NCBI GenBank assembly: GCA_027031765.1
Contig: JALVPN010000226.1
Coordinates: 14,005-22,253, forward strand
Origin: Promethearchaeota archaeon
Lineage (GTDB): Archaea; Asgardarchaeota; Thorarchaeia; Thorarchaeales; Thorarchaeaceae
DNA: 8,249 nucleotides
Reading direction: 5' to 3'
The notes below the pieces were generated by a model. That model made no database searches, had not been told where the DNA came from, and saw only the letters and a list, made by a program, of their open reading frames with translations. The position numbers and the translations under genes were made by a program. Positions 1-7,357 of the stretch are shown piece after piece (position 1 is the first letter of the stretch; every line of letters starts with the position of its first letter).

Positions 1-3000
1 TGTCGTGGTGGTACGTTCTACCACGCATGGTCTGCACCCACTGAGCTGACATACTGGAACCCCGTGAGTGTCATCACGATTGACGACCAGGACTATGACG
101 GCGAGTGGGAGATAATCATCGGACACACCCATGGTTTCGACATGTGGGAACATGTGCCGGGGTCAGACTCGCAGTATGTCAAGGTCGAGCATGTCACGGC
201 GTCCCCGAACTACCCCCTCGTCAAGCTGAGGAGCATGGTGTACTCGTTCGAGTCGATTGGCCCCGGCGGTCGCATGCTCAAGGACGCCGCCAGGCTGAAG
301 GGGACCTACAGCAATACCGGCTGGGTGCTCTACGAGACGAACGGCACGCCCGGTACGGCAATCGAAATCAAGGCCTACCGCTTCGACACTCACATGTGGA
401 TCCCTGGAGTCCCACTCAGCTCTGTTGCCAACTACTCAGCCCATGGGATAACGGTCAACAATGAGCAGCACCCATCAGTCACAGTGTTCGACAACGGTGA
501 CATATACATCGGATGGGAAGCAACATCGAATACGAGCACCCACTACCTGTGCTTGCTGCGCTATGACTACAACGCAGGCACTTGGAGTGATGTGTGGATG
601 CTCTCAGACCCGTTCTGGGGCACCCGTCAGTACCCCCAGGTCATCGAGTACAACGCCACCCACCTCGCAGTGGTCTACCTCTACACCCTGTGGGGAACCA
701 GCCGTGTGAACGCGTTCCTGCTGCGGAGAGACCTCACCGGCCCCTACACCTGGGTGGCGCTCCACTTCGAGGGCTACAACCAGCTCGATGTGCACGACAT
801 CTCGGCTGTCAGGATGCCTGATGGCAGGGTCGCAATTGCAATGTCTGCGTCAAGCCTGCTCATCTCCAAGCCGGACAACGACATCTGGGTTGTGGTGGGC
901 CCCGGCGACCTGAACTTCACGGGCGTACAACCACACCAGGCGTCCACCGAGTTCAGTGAGGACATGTATGTGTCCATTGACTACCTCCGCGACCGGGAGC
1001 AGACCCTGGTGGTCACCTACGAGCGTGTGGACATGCCCCTGGAGGAACGCATAGCCATGGTGGCCAGTGCCAATGGTGGTGCGACATGGGGCGTCCCCGA
1101 GGCCATGAACACCCTCCCGTCGTACGTCTACAGGCAGGAACACGTCAACGGCTACGTCTACTACAAGGACACCCGTACTGACACACCGGTCTATGGTCCG
1201 CAGGCCTACGGGCCGGCCATCATGCCACTCGACAGTGGTGGCTTCATGTACGTCATCTCGTTCACGTACATTGAGCCGCACATGATCAGCGACCTGCACT
1301 GGGTAATGATAAACCACATGGACCTGGTCTATGGGTTCAACGACCAGTCTGACTGGAGTGACAACTCCCTGCGCAACGTGGTCGACCTTGCAGTGGGTGA
1401 CACCGACTGCGACGGCCGCCGTGAGGTGGTGGTCGCCTTCGAAGACAGGGTCGGCGTGTACGAGATGAAGGGCTCCAACAACGGCACGGGCTTCATGTCC
1501 TACGAGGAGGCATGGCTCTCTGAGCCGTTCGAGGAGGAGGCCACCGGCGTCACGGTCTACGACACCAATGGCAACGGCTGGCCTGAGATCGGCATCTCCA
1601 CCGGTCGGGGCAACGTCTACTTCATGGAGTACCGCGACCCCTCTGAGGGCGCCATGTCGCTGCGCTACTCGCAGCAGGACTGGGAGCTCGATGTGGGCCC
1701 GGTAATAGGGCCCGGGCCGAGGAACCGCTTCCTGGCCGCTTACGACTACGACAGTGACTCGCGCGATGAGGTCGTGATTGCGGAGCCGAATGGTCGGTCC
1801 CTCAGACTGGTCGACGACGACGGCACCGAGCTCTGGAGTGTGACCGCCTCCTCCTCACGGATCACTGACATGGTCCTCTGTGACCTCGACAATGACACGG
1901 TGCCGGAGATAGTCGTGACGAGCTACGACGTCACCGTGCATACGTATGAGGGTGCCACGGGTGACCTCCTGTGGACGTTCACCAATACCTCGTCCTCCGG
2001 CTTTGGCGGCATTGCTACCGGTGACCTGACGGGTGACGGCCTGCCAGAAGTCGTGGTATCAATGTACGCAGGTGGGGCAGTGGTCCTCTCAGGGTCCGGC
2101 CAGTTCCTGTCGTACCTCCACATCCCCGGACTTGGTATCATCAAGCTGCTGGTGGGCAACTTCAGCCCCCAGGCATCTCCCGGGATTGCGACGGCCTCCC
2201 TTGACGGCAGGGTGTGCCTGACCTCGGCCAATGGCACCGTGCTCTACACGTCACCAATAGGCACTGCGTCAATCTACTCCCCACTGGCATCCTACGACTT
2301 CAGTGGAGATGGCTACGATGAGCTCGTGTTCGGCAAAGACGCCCTGCATGTCTACGACTTCGTGAACGGCAGCTTCTACCACAACTCCACAACCCTCGGT
2401 GAGACCATTGACCTGCACCTTGCAGACTTCGACGACGACGGTGACATCGAGGTGCTGGTCATGACAAAGTTCGACGGCGTGTACATGTACCAGGTCTCGA
2501 CCGGCACGGCCCAGTGGGTCTATCGTCCTGCCAACGCCTCTCTGTACATCCATGATGTCGGTGTCGGCCACTTTGGAGGTGTGGGCGCCCTGGATGTCAT
2601 CATCACGGTCGGCGAGACCGACAGGAACGGTGTGCTCCTGGCAGTCGACGGGCAGAGTGGCATGCCGATGTGGTTCAACAGGACGGGTGGCGTCATCCTC
2701 CACACCGTCGCCGCAGACCTCACGGGTGACGGCACTGACTCGATTGTCGGCTGGGACTTTGAGGACACGCGACTCGTGGCAACAAGCGCCGTTGGCCCCA
2801 CCGAGTACGGACCACCAGAGGCATTCCCGATGCACGACCGCCTGTGGACGCAGAGGGCCTCTGACGTGTCGATGGTGTACGCCAAGCAGCTCACGGGCCA
2901 CTACACCGAGGAGGTGGTATTTGTGTTTGGCAAGACCCACCTGCGTGTAATGGACGGCGGTACCGGGGACCCTGTATGGGGGGTCGACCTTGACAGCGTA

Positions 3001-4095
3001 GTCATTGAGGTCGAGTTCATGACCACCTCTGCCTCTGGTCCAGACGTGGCCCTGCTCCTTGGTGACGGCAGCGTGAGGGTCTACGACGGTGACACTGGCA
3101 CACTTGTGTTCAGCGTCCCGGAGGTCTCCGGCTACTCCACAGTGGCGATAGAAACGGGCGACTTCAACCACCCCTCGCTCTTCGACGAGCTGGCCATACT
3201 ATACCACCGCCCCACGTCGCCGTACACGACATACGTCGAGTGGTACACCGCCCAGGGCAGTAGCCTCTACTCCACGACCTCGTTCACAACTTCCAGCTGG
3301 TCGCTAAAGATGGACTCTGGGGTCTATGCAGCAGACGGGACGCGCTGTGTTGTGGTCGCTGGCAGCAGCCTCCAGTCGCGGTTCTATGCTGGCAACAACG
3401 GCACATACCTCGGCTCCATGGGCACCGGGTCTGTGTACAGGCTCACGTCCGGTCACTTCACGAGCACGGGCTACGAGTGCGTCGCAGTCATGAACTCGGC
3501 ATATGACATAACAGTCCTAGACTTCGAACTGGGCGTCACAAGCCCCGTGTTCTACTTTGACACCGGTCACGTGCGACAGTTCATGGCAGCAGACGTCGCC
3601 GCCAACGACGGCATCGACGAGCTCGTGGTCAACCTCGCGGAAGTGGGAGTCGTCGGCTACAAGTTCGACGGCAGCTTGGCCTGGTCGTACTACGCACCGC
3701 TCGTCTCTACAAGCGCGCGCTCGGTCAGTGTTGCGTTCGCCGACATGGACGGGGATGGCTGGGACGATATGGTCATGTCCAACAACGAGTACGTGGACGT
3801 CGTCAACGGTGCGACCCGCAGGCTCATGTGGCACTACCGCAACCCCGGCAAGAAGACCAACTACTACCCGGTCCCAATACTGGCCCACAGCCACAGTGTC
3901 AGGGATGTCCTCACCTACTCGTCGACCGACATCTACGTGATCTCAGCATCGCCACCGGCTGCATCGCCAGGTCCAGCAAGTGGCCTCTCTGTTGAGGAGA
4001 CCGTCATGATGGTCACCGCTGCGGGTGTACCACTGGTCTTCCTCTTCCTGGTCGTGCCACTCGTCCGCAGACGTCGACGAGTGCCTGTGAAGTGA
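1..4095 (+). CDS. Large membrane-anchored beta-propeller surface protein (FG-GAP-like and PQQ-like repeats plus BNR/Asp-box-like domain), 5'-truncated by the window
   Basis: Frame 1 is open from base 1 (CRGGTFYHAWSAPTELTYWNP-V), so GTG64 is probably not the true start; no signal peptide is visible. About 18 D-x-D/N-x-D-G-x-x-E/D-hydrophobic repeats (e.g. DQDYDGEWEIIIG, DTDCDGRREVVV, DLTGDGLPEVVV, DFDDDGDIEVLV, DMDGDGWDDMVM). Trp-docking motifs (DGQSGMPMW, EGATGDLLW, DGGTGDPVW). About 15 N-x-S/T sequons. C-terminal TM helix plus RRRRR; stop TGA 4093-4095. Confidence 0.93.
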   Translation, partial: CRGGTFYHAWSAPTELTYWNPVSVITIDDQDYDGEWEIIIGHTHGFDMWEHVPGSDSQYVKVEHVTASPNYPLVKLRSMVYSFESIGPGGRMLKDAARLKGTYSNTGWVLYETNGTPGTAIEIKAYRFDTHMWIPGVPLSSVANYSAHGITVNNEQHPSVTVFDNGDIYIGWEATSNTSTHYLCLLRYDYNAGTWSDVWMLSDPFWGTRQYPQVIEYNATHLAVVYLYTLWGTSRVNAFLLRRDLTGPYTWVALHFEGYNQLDVHDISAVRMPDGRVAIAMSASSLLISKPDNDIWVVVGPGDLNFTGVQPHQASTEFSEDMYVSIDYLRDREQTLVVTYERVDMPLEERIAMVASANGGATWGVPEAMNTLPSYVYRQEHVNGYVYYKDTRTDTPVYGPQAYGPAIMPLDSGGFMYVISFTYIEPHMISDLHWVMINHMDLVYGFNDQSDWSDNSLRNVVDLAVGDTDCDGRREVVVAFEDRVGVYEMKGSNNGTGFMSYEEAWLSEPFEEEATGVTVYDTNGNGWPEIGISTGRGNVYFMEYRDPSEGAMSLRYSQQDWELDVGPVIGPGPRNRFLAAYDYDSDSRDEVVIAEPNGRSLRLVDDDGTELWSVTASSSRITDMVLCDLDNDTVPEIVVTSYDVTVHTYEGATGDLLWTFTNTSSSGFGGIATGDLTGDGLPEVVVSMYAGGAVVLSGSGQFLSYLHIPGLGIIKLLVGNFSPQASPGIATASLDGRVCLTSANGTVLYTSPIGTASIYSPLASYDFSGDGYDELVFGKDALHVYDFVNGSFYHNSTTLGETIDLHLADFDDDGDIEVLVMTKFDGVYMYQVSTGTAQWVYRPANASLYIHDVGVGHFGGVGALDVIITVGETDRNGVLLAVDGQSGMPMWFNRTGGVILHTVAADLTGDGTDSIVGWDFEDTRLVATSAVGPTEYGPPEAFPMHDRLWTQRASDVSMVYAKQLTGHYTEEVVFVFGKTHLRVMDGGTGDPVWGVDLDSVVIEVEFMTTSASGPDVALLLGDGSVRVYDGDTGTLVFSVPEVSGYSTVAIETGDFNHPSLFDELAILYHRPTSPYTTYVEWYTAQGSSLYSTTSFTTSSWSLKMDSGVYAADGTRCVVVAGSSLQSRFYAGNNGTYLGSMGTGSVYRLTSGHFTSTGYECVAVMNSAYDITVLDFELGVTSPVFYFDTGHVRQFMAADVAANDGIDELVVNLAEVGVVGYKFDGSLAWSYYAPLVSTSARSVSVAFADMDGDGWDDMVMSNNEYVDVVNGATRRLMWHYRNPGKKTNYYPVPILAHSHSVRDVLTYSSTDIYVISASPPAASPGPASGLSVEETVMMVTAAGVPLVFLFLVVPLVRRRRRVPVK
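457..1338 (+). other. BNR/Asp-box (sialidase-fold-like) beta-propeller domain within ORF1
   Basis: Asp-box-like S-A-N-G-G-A-T-W at 1066-1089 and Y-D-Y-N-A-G-T-W at 562-585. Blade-like beta-strand patterns HPSVTVFDNGDIYIGW, YPQVIEYNATHLAVVY, DISAVRMPDGRVAIAM and GPAIMPLDSGGFMYVISF. No FG-GAP motifs in this segment. Boundaries are approximate. Confidence 0.6.
1396..3780 (+). repeat. Protein-level array of about 17 FG-GAP-like/PQQ-like blades (probably 2-3 beta-propellers)
   Basis: Acidic DxDxDG-type loop motifs recur roughly every 40-60 aa from GDTDCDGRRE (1396) to ADMDGDGWDD (ends 3780). Several copies are degenerate (GNFSPQASPG, GHFTSTGYEC, KQLTGHYTEE). The repeats are diverged at the DNA level. 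Confidence 0.8.
3943..4092 (+). other. C-terminal anchor of ORF1: Pro/Ser/Ala linker, TM helix, Arg-rich cytoplasmic tail
   Basis: Linker SASPPAASPGPASG; hydrophobic VMMVTAAGVPLVFLFLVVPLV (4003-4065); tail RRRRRVPVK. Confidence 0.85.
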
Positions 4096-4463: not shown

Positions 4464-4612
4464 GTAGGCTTGAGACATGCAGTCCCTGTGGACGGCCTAG
4501 GGCCTCTGCACTGGCCGTAGTACTCCACCACATGACTTATATTGCTGGGCTGAATAGTCTATATCACCAGCTAATGCACGTCCAGCAGCATGCCGGTGCA
4601 GAAAGTCTGTGA

Positions 4613-4627
4613 CCAAAAGCTATAACT
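4613..4627 (+). promoter_or_regulatory. Archaeal-type promoter: BRE-like CCAAAAG plus TATA-like CTATAACT; predicted TSS near 4650
   Basis: An A-rich tract directly upstream of TATAA (4621-4625), in an otherwise GC-rich background. Standard archaeal spacing (TATA centred about -26/-27) puts the start about 13 nt before the structured RNA. Confidence 0.55.
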
Positions 4628-4633
4628 GTACTT

Positions 4634-4648
4634 GCTTGCACCGCAAGC
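4634..4648. promoter_or_regulatory. Operator-like inverted repeat GCTTGC-acc-GCAAGC between the TATA box and the predicted TSS
   Basis: Perfect 6-bp inverted repeat with a 3-nt spacer, at a position typical of archaeal repressor sites. Confidence 0.35.
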
Positions 4649-4650
4649 CT

Positions 4651-4811
4651 GTAACCCAAACAAGGGCGCAGCAGCATGATGTGGGTCGACTCCTCGCTTT
4701 GGCGTGCGGCGAGGGTCTTGCGAGAGCCTCAAAATAGGTTTCTCGGAATGCGGCGGGAAAAAGTTAGGTGGCGCGGCGATCGTCGCATTGCCCACAGAGC
4801 TGCGCCCACCT
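4651..4811 (+). ncRNA. Candidate structured non-coding RNA or cis-regulatory leader (four-way junction with K-turn-like loop); family unknown
   Basis: Hand-folded helices: P1 4664-4672/4799-4807 (9 bp, all Watson-Crick); P2 4680-4686/4790-4796 (7 bp); Pa 4688-4698/4708-4717 (10 bp, 1 bulge); Pb 4721-4729/4736-4745 (9 bp, 1 bulge); Pc 4747-4756/4780-4789 (10 bp). Junction linkers are only 1, 3, 1 and 0 nt. Promoter upstream, pyrimidine-rich tract downstream. Confidence 0.55.
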
Positions 4812-4844
4812 CATTCTGATCTGTCGTTGTCCTGTCTTCTGTCT
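4811..4844 (+). terminator. Possible pyrimidine/U-rich termination tract after the structured RNA
   Basis: TCATTCTGATCTGTCGTTGTCCTGTCTTCTGTCT is strongly T/C-rich relative to its flanks but has no run of more than 2 T, so this call is weak. Confidence 0.25.
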
Positions 4845-5085
4845 GGAGCCGGCCGTGTCCAGATGGCAGTTGGTGTCTCAGGCCCGGCGCTGGGGGCTGC
4901 TGTGTTGGTCTGCGCAGGGTGTCCCGACTGTTGGAGTACTGCCCGGAGAGTATGGTGTGTCCGGGCGGGGATGACCGTGGAATGGTGTGGCACGTGCGGA
5001 TGTGTGGGCGTGTCGACAACGGGGGCATGGGCACGGACTGGAAGGACCGGTCGCGCCTGCTCGACGTGCTGCTGTGATGGGCGCG

Positions 5086-5093
5086 CTAATTAG
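5086..5093 (+). promoter_or_regulatory. TATA-like palindrome CTAATTAG about 27 nt upstream of the ORF2 ATG (possible leaderless promoter)
   Basis: An isolated AT island in a G-rich stretch; TAATTA is centred about 27 nt before ATG5117. No Shine-Dalgarno is evident and no clear BRE is present. Confidence 0.35.
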
Positions 5094-5116
5094 GCAGTGG
5101 GTACAGTTGTCATCTG

Positions 5117-7357
5117 ATGAGAGCCCGGTCGTTCGTGCTTGCCGTGTCGGTGGTGCTGGTACTCGGACTCGCAGGTCTACCGCTGGCCCCAGACGGTGGG
5201 CCTACCGGGGGGCCACAGAATGGCACGGGTGCAGTGGCACGGCCTGCGGACCAGTACACAGTGGACAGGACATCGCGCAAGTGGCCTGTCAGGGTCGTGT
5301 TTGTGGGCTACGATGACGCAGTGGTGAACGAGTCCGAGTTTGTCGCAGGTCTGCCCGGTCCATTCGAACGGAGCTATGGGTCTCTGCATGTGGTGCACAA
5401 CATCAGCTATGAGGTATACTTTGCGGGCGCGACGTACTACAACTGGGTGCTGGAGTGGGCACGTGGGCACGCCCATACGGGGAGTGCTGCCGGTACGCGC
5501 CTTGACACTACACAGCTCGACCCGGACACACCGGACCCCTCGACATTCCTCGTGCCACGGGCCGGCATGGCTATCAATGCGACTGCCACTGAGGACTGGC
5601 TCTACTGGAACCCCTACGTGCCTGGACGGGGGGACGGGTGGACGCTCTACGTCCTCAACCTCAGCGAGCTCGACACACCGGACCACTCATACGAACACTG
5701 GTTCGAGTACACTCCCCTCGATGTCGACTCTAACACGACCCGGCCCCTACACCTGCCCGTAGTCGGCCCTGACACGTACGTGGATGCGACTGCACAGCTG
5801 ACCGCCTTCGGTGGCCGCTATGACCTCTATACGGTAGACCCGAGCGCTGACCAGTGGTACCTCCGTCTGGCCGCTGCTCTCCTCAACGGTACACTCTACG
5901 ACGGCCGACCACCACGGTACATGACTGAAGACCTGGAGGATGTCGTCGTGCACTCTGACCTGTCCACCGCTGCGGGCAGGGCCAACGTCACACAGTACCT
6001 TGCTGAGTACTGCAGTGCGCTGCTGCACGCGGTCTTCATGTCCGATGCGCATGGCGACAGTCTGGTGGACCCGCCCCCCACGTGGCGCCCGACTGTCAGT
6101 CTAGTACAGCTCAGGGTCACACTGGCCACTGTCGGCGACACGTCCTCTGCCGGAGACCTGGGCTGGATGACCGCTGCCTCGCGTGTGCGTGAGGCCCTTA
6201 CACATGCGGTGCCCGTAGTGGACTGGGATGTCTACGCGCGCCTGCTACCCATCGACGAGGAGTCCACGCTCAATAGCACCTTCTGGGGGGCTGTCACTCT
6301 CAACGACACGGATGTTGTCGTGGACTGCACGCGCCTTGCCATGGGGCTTGCTGGTGGCAGTGACCACAGTGGTGGGACGACTGACAATGAGAGCGTCCTG
6401 TCCCTCAATGTGTCTGTGTTTGTCGGCGCAGGGCTTGTCCCCATGGAAGCGTGTGGGCTTGGGACTGCTGGACTCACCGCTGTGGTCACACGCGGACTGG
6501 ACACGGTAGTGGGCCCTGGCCCGGGGGATCCGGTCGCAGGTGTGACAGGCGACATTGTACGGGCGGTACTCGCACTGCTGGGTGTAGGCTGCTCTCTAAA
6601 TACCAGCCTATTCATAGGTGACATGATGTGGGGTGTACTGACACCACTGTTCCCTGCTGCAGTCCCGTCGACTGCCACCACCGACATTCTCTGCGTGGCC
6701 CTTGTCGACCAGCTGGAGGAGGCCAGCCGCGACCTGTTGCGCGACGTAGTATCTGGACTACCGGCTACCCTGCCTTCTCGCACCGCATGGGGGATAAGCT
6801 CTGCGCTCAGGGCCATACGCCATGCTGACGACCTCGTGCTCCGTCACGACTTCCAAGACGCCGTGGCCGCTCTCCTCTCCGTCGAGGACTGGGCCCATCG
6901 GATTGTTGCCTCGCTCTCGGACTCCCTGCGACCAGAGATCCTTGAATGGGGCGTTGTACAACCACACTCATGGGACGACCCGTTCGTGGTGTGGGCAAAC
7001 GTCAGTGAGAGCGGTTCGGGGATTGAGAACGTGACGGTGGTCATCGAGGGCCCGCTGGGCGAGAGGCGGCACCTCCTCCCCTACAATGGGACACACTATA
7101 CCGCGTGGCTCGCACCACTGGGCCTCAATGCGACCTTCCAGGTCCACGTCGAGGCGTACGACTGGGCCATGAATGTGGCCACGAGCTATACCCTGACGGT
7201 CGACCTGTCCCCGAGGCCACCACCACCGTTGGACCCCTGGGTCACCATGCCGCTCGTCGTGGGGTCAAGCCTTGTGCTTATGGTCGTGGTCGTGGTCGTT
7301 GCCTACGCGTACCGGCGGCGCGTGTTCCCTGAGATGACTGCCGGCCCCCCGGAATGA
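5117..7357 (+). CDS. Secreted, C-terminally anchored surface glycoprotein (746 aa); probable inactive zinc-metallopeptidase homolog with an Ig-like stalk domain
   Basis: N-terminal signal peptide MRARSFVLAVSVVLVLGLAGLPLA. 17 N-x-S/T sequons. Ig-like domain (about 6920-7203; ANVSESGSGIENVTV...AYDWAMN). Pro-rich linker, TM helix 7241-7312, then RRR. The peptidase relationship is recalled from family patterns and is not verified. Confidence 0.9.
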   Translation: MRARSFVLAVSVVLVLGLAGLPLAPDGGPTGGPQNGTGAVARPADQYTVDRTSRKWPVRVVFVGYDDAVVNESEFVAGLPGPFERSYGSLHVVHNISYEVYFAGATYYNWVLEWARGHAHTGSAAGTRLDTTQLDPDTPDPSTFLVPRAGMAINATATEDWLYWNPYVPGRGDGWTLYVLNLSELDTPDHSYEHWFEYTPLDVDSNTTRPLHLPVVGPDTYVDATAQLTAFGGRYDLYTVDPSADQWYLRLAAALLNGTLYDGRPPRYMTEDLEDVVVHSDLSTAAGRANVTQYLAEYCSALLHAVFMSDAHGDSLVDPPPTWRPTVSLVQLRVTLATVGDTSSAGDLGWMTAASRVREALTHAVPVVDWDVYARLLPIDEESTLNSTFWGAVTLNDTDVVVDCTRLAMGLAGGSDHSGGTTDNESVLSLNVSVFVGAGLVPMEACGLGTAGLTAVVTRGLDTVVGPGPGDPVAGVTGDIVRAVLALLGVGCSLNTSLFIGDMMWGVLTPLFPAAVPSTATTDILCVALVDQLEEASRDLLRDVVSGLPATLPSRTAWGISSALRAIRHADDLVLRHDFQDAVAALLSVEDWAHRIVASLSDSLRPEILEWGVVQPHSWDDPFVVWANVSESGSGIENVTVVIEGPLGERRHLLPYNGTHYTAWLAPLGLNATFQVHVEAYDWAMNVATSYTLTVDLSPRPPPPLDPWVTMPLVVGSSLVLMVVVVVVAYAYRRRVFPEMTAGPPE

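Follow-up and report, generated by a model that had tools for sequence, protein, structure and literature searches.

Gene content of the window and fold of the intergenic RNA

The window, by which we mean the whole 8,249-nt stretch of Thorarchaeaceae DNA analyzed here, begins with the end of a gene for a giant FG-GAP repeat surface protein (positions 1..4095, plus strand; Pfam FG-GAP_3, E = 5.9e-25). On the same strand, positions 5117..7357 encode a secreted, sequon-rich and C-terminally anchored protein of 746 amino acids, in agreement with a preliminary description of this DNA that had placed a structured RNA between two cell-surface glycoprotein genes. In many relatives, the RNA is followed by a gene for a small glycoprotein of 180–220 amino acids that is itself secreted, rich in N-glycosylation sequons and equipped with a C-terminal anchor, and the last ∼130 residues of the downstream protein match it. 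Reading frame 5117–7357 is a fusion, and its N-terminal ∼600 residues resemble the N-terminus of the protein located downstream of the RNA in one relative (locus L013), where there is a weak match to DUF7906. Within the 1021-nt spacer that separates the two genes, only ∼4655–4820 is conserved, forming a sharply bounded block. A G/T-rich stretch of ∼270 nt at 4813–5085, with a GC skew of up to +0.26, shows no similarity in any relative.

The conserved block holds a structured RNA of 147 nt on the plus strand (4664..4810), which runs from a guanosine designated G1 to an invariant ACC. Homologues cover exactly this block, and the window copy scores 138 bits against the covariance model R1 described below. 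For 4664–4807, the preliminary description had proposed a terminal helix that leads through an internal loop into a second helix topped by three hairpins, and RNAfold returned this arrangement: the hairpins occupy 4688–4717, 4721–4745 and 4747–4789, and the linkers measure 1, 3, 1 and 0 nt. The end of the element at 4807 was likewise recovered, with the amendment that the conserved RNA continues three bases further, to the ACC at 4808–4810. The 5′ strand of the terminal helix P1, GGGCGCAGC (4664..4672), forms 9 bp with GCUGCGCCC at 4799–4807, and the first three G-C pairs are invariant. Eight P1 pairs are included in the model, four to five of which show two-sided changes, and 98% of the cells are paired; one genus carries the variant GGGUAAGG/CCUUACCC. 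The internal loop between P1 and P2 consists of 7 nt on the 5′ side (4673..4679), where both sequence and length vary across homologues (alignments A1 and A2), and 2 nt on the 3′ side. P2 is a 7-bp helix between 4680..4686 and 4790–4796, and four of its five model pairs have two-sided changes. Together, the 3′ strands of P2 (4790–4796) and P1 (4799–4807) occupy 4790..4807, with GA in between.

Each of the three hairpins mounted on P2 combines a covarying stem with a conserved loop. The loop of P3 (4688..4717), UUGGCGUGC, contains an invariant GGCGUGC at 4701–4707, and seven of the nine stem pairs covary. It is followed by the P3/P4 junction (4718..4720), which is part of a conserved UCUUGC (alignments A2 and A3). 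P4 (4721..4745) is closed by the conserved 6-nt loop CAAAAU at 4730–4735, with the consensus [C/A]A[A/G]AA[U/C] in the alignments, and all five of its inner pairs show two-sided changes. P5 (4747..4789) has a 23-nt loop in which UUAGG (4764–4768) is followed by UGGCGCGGC (4769–4777), and two-sided changes are found in eight of its nine stem pairs. The RNA ends with the single-stranded ACC (4808..4810), which is invariant and is always followed by a pyrimidine.

In a comparison with dinucleotide shuffles, proposed in the preliminary description, the excess of folding energy is only moderate: the RNA folds at −67.1 kcal/mol (z = −2.76; RNAfold), and 1 of 200 shuffles is equally stable. Given that the forward score is moderate and that the reverse strand reaches z = −3.11, folding energy alone decides little. 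A mutual-information scan of the homologues did not find an additional helix. Two candidate pseudoknots were rejected. For pairing of the CCACC tail with a loop GGUGG, the GGUGG is lost in variants carrying an insert, and the sixth pair shows no covariation. For pairing of CUUGC in the P3/P4 junction with GCAAG in P5, one-sided changes are left uncompensated.

Conservation of the structure and distribution of the gene

It is comparative evidence, and not the energy of a single sequence, that decides for a conserved RNA gene over a chance fold. Forty-seven homologues were aligned with MAFFT, which is blind to structure, and R1 was built on that same alignment. In it, 95.8% of the cells pair, compared with 81.5% in shuffles and 33–45% in slid registers. 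Two-sided changes occur in 29 of the 41 pairs, and the covariation score is 0.52, as opposed to 0.23 for column shuffles. The observed pairing and covariation measures were reached by none of 500 shuffles. Among 62 homologues derived from the model, 97.3% of the cells pair and 30 of the 41 pairs show two-sided changes, values to be read knowing that this alignment leans to the model structure. Covariation in all five helices, which the preliminary description had suggested checking, is supported when the alignment is set against the shuffle and slid-register controls, and P1 through P5 each contain several compensatory pairs. The homologues contain 251 G-U cells and 13 A-C cells, establishing that the plus strand is the RNA strand. 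Median pairwise identity is 66%, and the lowest value is 50%. None of the frames remains open throughout the homologues, and the lengths of most gaps are not divisible by three, which bears out the earlier remark that no convincing open reading frame covers the element.

Part of the data set had been fetched by a pattern requiring three motifs, and invariant positions were for this reason checked on the 62 model-derived copies. All 62 carry GGCGUGC in the P3 loop and GGCGCG in the P5 loop. The RNA invariably begins with GGG, and at the 3′ end CCC-ACC precedes a C or U in 61 of 61 copies that are not truncated. The UCUUGC and GGAA junctions, like CAAAAU in the loop of P4, are almost without variation. 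The spacer between UUAGG and UGGCGCGGC in the P5 loop is variable; it is 0 nt long in the window copy, which is the shortest form, and reads UGG in most genomes. In three genomes (G011, G161 and G198; loci L138, L168 and L169), hairpins of 30–65 nt are inserted at this spacer and the motifs on either side are preserved, a pattern to be expected of a loop on the surface of a folded RNA. A search of the source genome for extended antisense targets of the conserved loops found none beyond chance.

Exactly one R1 match per genome was found in 68 of 86 Thorarchaeaceae genomes, representing all 16 genera of the family. Among family genomes that are at least 90% complete with no more than 5% contamination, 21 of 23 carry the RNA. 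No R1 match was found in 125 Asgard genomes belonging to 26 other families (Infernal with stricter filters). Weak matches in G025, a genome of another family, and in G010 are false, the former being located inside a methyltransferase reading frame. In a BLASTN comparison of 4560–4900 with 40 relatives, 22 of the 24 genomes of the same family gave a match, 19 of them at E < 0.001, and the aligned block was the element. Homologous loci identified by a pattern scan of genome contigs come from Candidatus Thorarchaeota / Promethearchaeota, and ∼35 bacterial matches of the pattern scan are due to chance and were rejected by nhmmer. The source genome (2.95 Mb in 229 contigs, 95% complete) contains one copy of the RNA, and an exact-pattern scan of viral contigs did not find the RNA pattern. 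A repeat or mobile element of the MITE type was rejected on the grounds of the single copy in the source genome and in each of the 68 genomes, and of the result for viral contigs.

G160, which is assembled as a single contig, has no copy of the RNA even though its congeners carry divergent copies, and it does have the FtsX-like permease considered below. In G194, the copy (L167, G194:C268:1680-1900) is without its 3′ third, the break lying between two TCATTA direct repeats. This deletion, which is either real or an assembly artefact, fuses the P5 loop to the region upstream of an FtsX-like gene. The absence of the RNA from permease-positive G160, together with the truncated copy in G194, indicates that the RNA is not strictly essential.

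Putative promoter, trailer and neighboring genes

Upstream of the RNA is a putative BRE/TATA-like promoter, GACCAAAAG-CTATAAC-T (4611..4627, plus strand), which matches the consensus and whose TATA part ends 37 nt before G1. The motif RACCRNAAG-N-TWTAWC is located upstream of nearly all homologues, ending 23–45 nt before G1, and a short 5′ leader of variable length is therefore predicted. To judge by the conservation of this box, the earlier suggestion that the RNA has a promoter of its own appears to be correct. A scan of the window for bacterial-type promoters and terminators, whose coverage does not extend to archaeal promoters, called nothing. On the 3′ side, a pyrimidine-rich trailer (4811..4845, plus strand) is the likely termination zone; its sequence is not conserved, and it resembles the trailers of tRNA genes. 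In the tRNA genes of the source genome, as called by ARAGORN, TATA boxes end 22–51 nt before the mature 5′ end, and the genes finish in CCC-A-CCA (for example tRNA-Met, tRNA-Ile and tRNA-Val) followed by CU-rich trailers. The RNA gene thus has the layout of a tRNA gene in its promoter geometry, its GGG/CCC helix and its trailer, except for a pyrimidine at the position of A76. The acceptor-type end is invariant in its GGG, CCC and ACC, and where the tRNA genes of the source genome have CCA, position 76 is C or U in all 61 copies. ARAGORN called only 24 tRNA genes in the source genome, which is 95% complete, and the well-called ones all encode CCA; many others were probably missed through introns or assembly gaps.

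Presence of the RNA in RNA libraries was seen for a relative. With the RNA of locus L102 as query, nine RNA-library matches were obtained in several studies, and it is covered by contigs of four of these libraries, metatranscriptomes belonging to three studies. In one run, G1 is the exact end point of two contigs. One metatranscriptome contig extends beyond the predicted TATA box, including 57 nt ahead of G1, and may be derived from DNA or result from read-through. In the four RNA runs, the regions flanking the relative's RNA are uncovered, to which we give no weight, as contigs cannot prove silence. For the window sequence itself no RNA library is listed, and the only libraries are DNA libraries from a hydrothermal vent sample. 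Contigs carry no information on transcript ends, strand or abundance, and so these data support presence in RNA libraries and little more. With regard to the discrete transcript that the preliminary description had suggested looking for, they place the relative's RNA in metatranscriptomes and cannot resolve a discrete species.

At about two thirds of the loci, the RNA is linked on the same strand to the gene for the small glycoprotein and to a gene for an FtsX-like permease of ∼930 amino acids. The next gene elsewhere is unrelated in many genomes, encoding a zinc-ribbon protein, an Fe-S protein, a response regulator or, on the opposite strand, an M1 peptidase. At eight loci (L081, L050, L095, L036, L056, L037, L072 and L053), 0.6–3 kb of variable genes lie directly 3′ of the RNA and before the glycoprotein and permease genes, an arrangement that recalls the variable islands adjoining tRNA genes. 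In the source genome, the FtsX-like permease homologue is located on contig C208, apart from the RNA. Downstream of the RNA in the window, a TATA-like box, CTAATTAGG (5086..5094, plus strand), is situated 22 nt before the ATG of the following gene; it lies outside the RNA and marks a separate transcription unit. Boxes resembling CTAATTARG are found 18–38 nt before the start codon of homologous glycoprotein genes across genera (for example at L109, L033, L088, L057 and L041), which predicts mRNAs that begin downstream of the RNA and have a short leader or none. On the other side of the RNA, at ∼15 of 45 loci, a gene for a PIN-domain protein of 610–640 amino acids is located 0.2–0.6 kb upstream on the opposite strand. 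This candidate partner occurs in genus g6 and at some g3 loci (for example L050, L057 and L093).

Relationship to known RNAs and proposed nature

The RNA matches no catalogued family. Searches of the window and of 14 homologous loci against Rfam 15, with the gathering score and with a threshold of E 10, gave no match at the element, and a permissive Rfam scan of the intergenic region returned chance-level matches only, none of them credible at the element. Absence of a match even at E 10 upholds its status as undescribed, and a full-text search of the literature did not find a description of such an RNA. The genome also holds archaeal SRP RNA and archaeal RNase P RNA, in keeping with the earlier designation of the element as an archaeal noncoding RNA. 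We conclude that the RNA represents a new family of a familiar general type, that of orphan structured small RNAs.

We favor, with a probability of roughly 65%, the view that this is a free-standing gene whose product is a stable small RNA that acts in trans and constitutes a new family confined to the Thorarchaeaceae. The preliminary description had offered a noncoding RNA or a cis-regulatory leader; the former is better supported by the TATA box that the downstream gene possesses and by the unrelated next genes, and the latter is less likely. As a leader, the RNA would sense a signal and set read-through into a surface operon of the glycoprotein and the FtsX-like permease. We consider this unlikely, although several observations speak for it. 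In most genomes the RNA is upstream of those genes on the same strand, with a frame starting within 150 nt at ∼20 of 45 loci, and the trailer has only weak T runs, such that read-through is conceivable. Two genomes of the family, G009 and G010, have neither the RNA nor the permease with the queries used, and this joint absence, together with the same-strand link, would also fit a functional or cis link. Multi-helix junctions with invariant junction and loop bases, such as that of the RNA, are typical of aptamers. Nevertheless, the conserved box 18–38 nt before the start codon gives the downstream genes a promoter of their own, the first downstream gene varies, extra genes are inserted in several genomes while the RNA remains intact, and the permease homologue of the source genome is on another contig. 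A conserved alternative helix or expression platform is also absent, because conservation stops at ∼4820, and a switch helix was rejected since its proposed partner region beyond ∼4820 is not conserved. A riboswitch is recognized by an expression platform and by a constant position within the 5′ UTR, ahead of genes that are functionally related, whereas here the downstream gene has its own box and the first gene varies.

The tRNA-like gene layout raises another reading, a true functional tRNA mimic that RNase P would cut at G1 and whose 3′ end, once trimmed to ACC, would be extended to ACCA by the CCA-adding enzyme. Such an RNA would work through the machinery that binds tRNAs, for example as a decoy, acceptor or processing signal, or else would be an integration site in the manner of tRNA genes. 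In its favor, the GGG, CCC and ACC correspond to G1-C72, G2-C71, G3-C70, A73, C74 and C75 of the tRNA-Met, tRNA-Ile and tRNA-Val genes, promoter spacing and trailer are like those of tRNA genes, the four-way junction has its arms in tRNA order with similar linkers, and the genes adjoining the 3′ end of the RNA vary between genomes. Against this, a T-loop, a D-loop and a 7-nt anticodon loop are all missing, neither ARAGORN nor the Rfam tRNA model gives a match, a pyrimidine replaces A76 in all 61 full copies, and a variable internal loop and second helix intervene between P1 and the junction, unlike the stack of acceptor and T-arm. We regard such a mimic as distinctly improbable. It is far more improbable still that the RNA is a divergent housekeeping RNA (SRP, RNase P, 5S, tRNA-Sec, or an H/ACA or C/D guide) missed by the models. 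A single copy that is nearly universal in the family would be in line with a housekeeping role, but SRP RNA (111.7 bits), archaeal RNase P RNA (170.1 bits) and 5S rRNA (58.8 bits) are all present at full length on other contigs of the source genome, and a tRNA-Sec gene is found on contig C107. For the guides, the 3′ box is ACC and not ACA, and both the would-be guide pocket and the GA/GA arrangement lack conservation.

Several specific assignments were tried and rejected. For tRNA, ARAGORN called no tRNA or tmRNA gene in the window, RF00005 gave no match at E 10 in the window or at the 14 loci, and the P4 loop is 6 nt long. For a K-turn with box C/D, whose hallmark is conserved tandem G-A pairing beside a 3-nt bulge (C box RUGAUGA, D box CUGA), the window has GA opposite GA, and the loop sequences differ in most homologues; as the GA/GA arrangement is not conserved, a K-turn is unsupported. 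For an H/ACA guide, every copy has ACC as its box, and an internal loop that differs between homologues in both sequence and length cannot direct the RNA to a fixed target. For a Y RNA of a Ro RNP, whose Ro/TROVE protein is usually encoded close by, a search of the 95% complete genome for the TROVE domain (PF05731) found nothing, and Rfam gave no YrlA match. For a relationship to the SRP Alu domain, there is no resemblance to the sequence of the SRP RNA of this genome.

Comparison with known systems places the RNA near several of them and within none. We take tRNA-like small RNAs, such as mascRNA and the tRNA-like elements of Haloferax volcanii, to be among the closest. A four-way junction closed by the ends of the molecule, the GGG and CCC strands, ACC, the promoter spacing and the pyrimidine-rich trailer are shared with tRNA genes, whereas the RNA is ∼150 nt long, is without D-loop, T-loop and anticodon loop, has an extra helix and an internal loop below the junction, and carries C or U for A76. 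Bacterial Y RNAs of the YrlA type (RF02553) have in common with it a stem formed by the ends and containing an internal loop, a multi-helix tRNA-like module, a single copy and a 3′ pyrimidine or U tail, but the RNA described here is archaeal, has no Rfam match and comes from a genome in which no Ro/TROVE gene was found. The raiA motif RNA is presumably comparable as an orphan structured noncoding RNA of narrow distribution found by comparative genomics; it too is free-standing, with multiple covarying stems, invariant loops and loose synteny with one gene. There is, however, no similarity of sequence or model between the two, and the RNA here is specific to Asgard archaea and carries tRNA-like ends. 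With archaeal H/ACA RNAs it shares a lower and an upper stem separated by an asymmetric internal loop, as well as a three-letter single-stranded 3′ box; it differs from them in having ACC instead of ACA and a three-hairpin junction on top instead of a K-loop.

Returning to the free-standing small RNA, we propose that it would be transcribed from its own BRE/TATA promoter with a variable 5′ leader of ∼0–15 nt, and that transcription would end in the pyrimidine-rich trailer. Because its gene layout resembles that of the tRNA genes of this genome, the RNA is probably matured by the enzymes that process tRNA ends. The work of the RNA would be performed by its invariant unpaired parts, namely GGCGUGC in P3, UUAGG and UGGCGCGGC in P5, CAAAAU in P4, the UCUUGC and GGAA junctions and the ACC tail. 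The GGCGUGC loop of P3 and the GGCGCGGC loop may be in contact, with the two similar GGCG(Y)GC loops pairing through CGUGC and GCGCG. Such loop-loop pairing could lock an L-shaped, tRNA-like fold, or alternatively the loops could bind protein. Our best guess is that the RNA is the scaffold of a lineage-specific ribonucleoprotein and not a base-pairing regulator. The ideas of loop pairing and of a protein scaffold both rest on invariant bases, and so covariation cannot test either. More speculatively, and as a long shot, the RNA might be a working Asgard mimic of tRNA that engages the CCA-adding enzyme, an aminoacyl-tRNA synthetase or a transferase for a non-translational task, perhaps one tied to the surface genes.

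Asgard archaea are the closest known relatives of eukaryotes, and to our knowledge almost nothing is known about their noncoding RNAs. The new RNA class merits an Rfam family and annotation in ∼70 species-level genomes. In addition, the tRNA-like layout and ends on a body that is not that of a tRNA lead to concrete, testable hypotheses: that RNase P and the CCA-adding enzyme process the RNA, that it has a dedicated protein partner, and that it is connected with the surface-protein genes.
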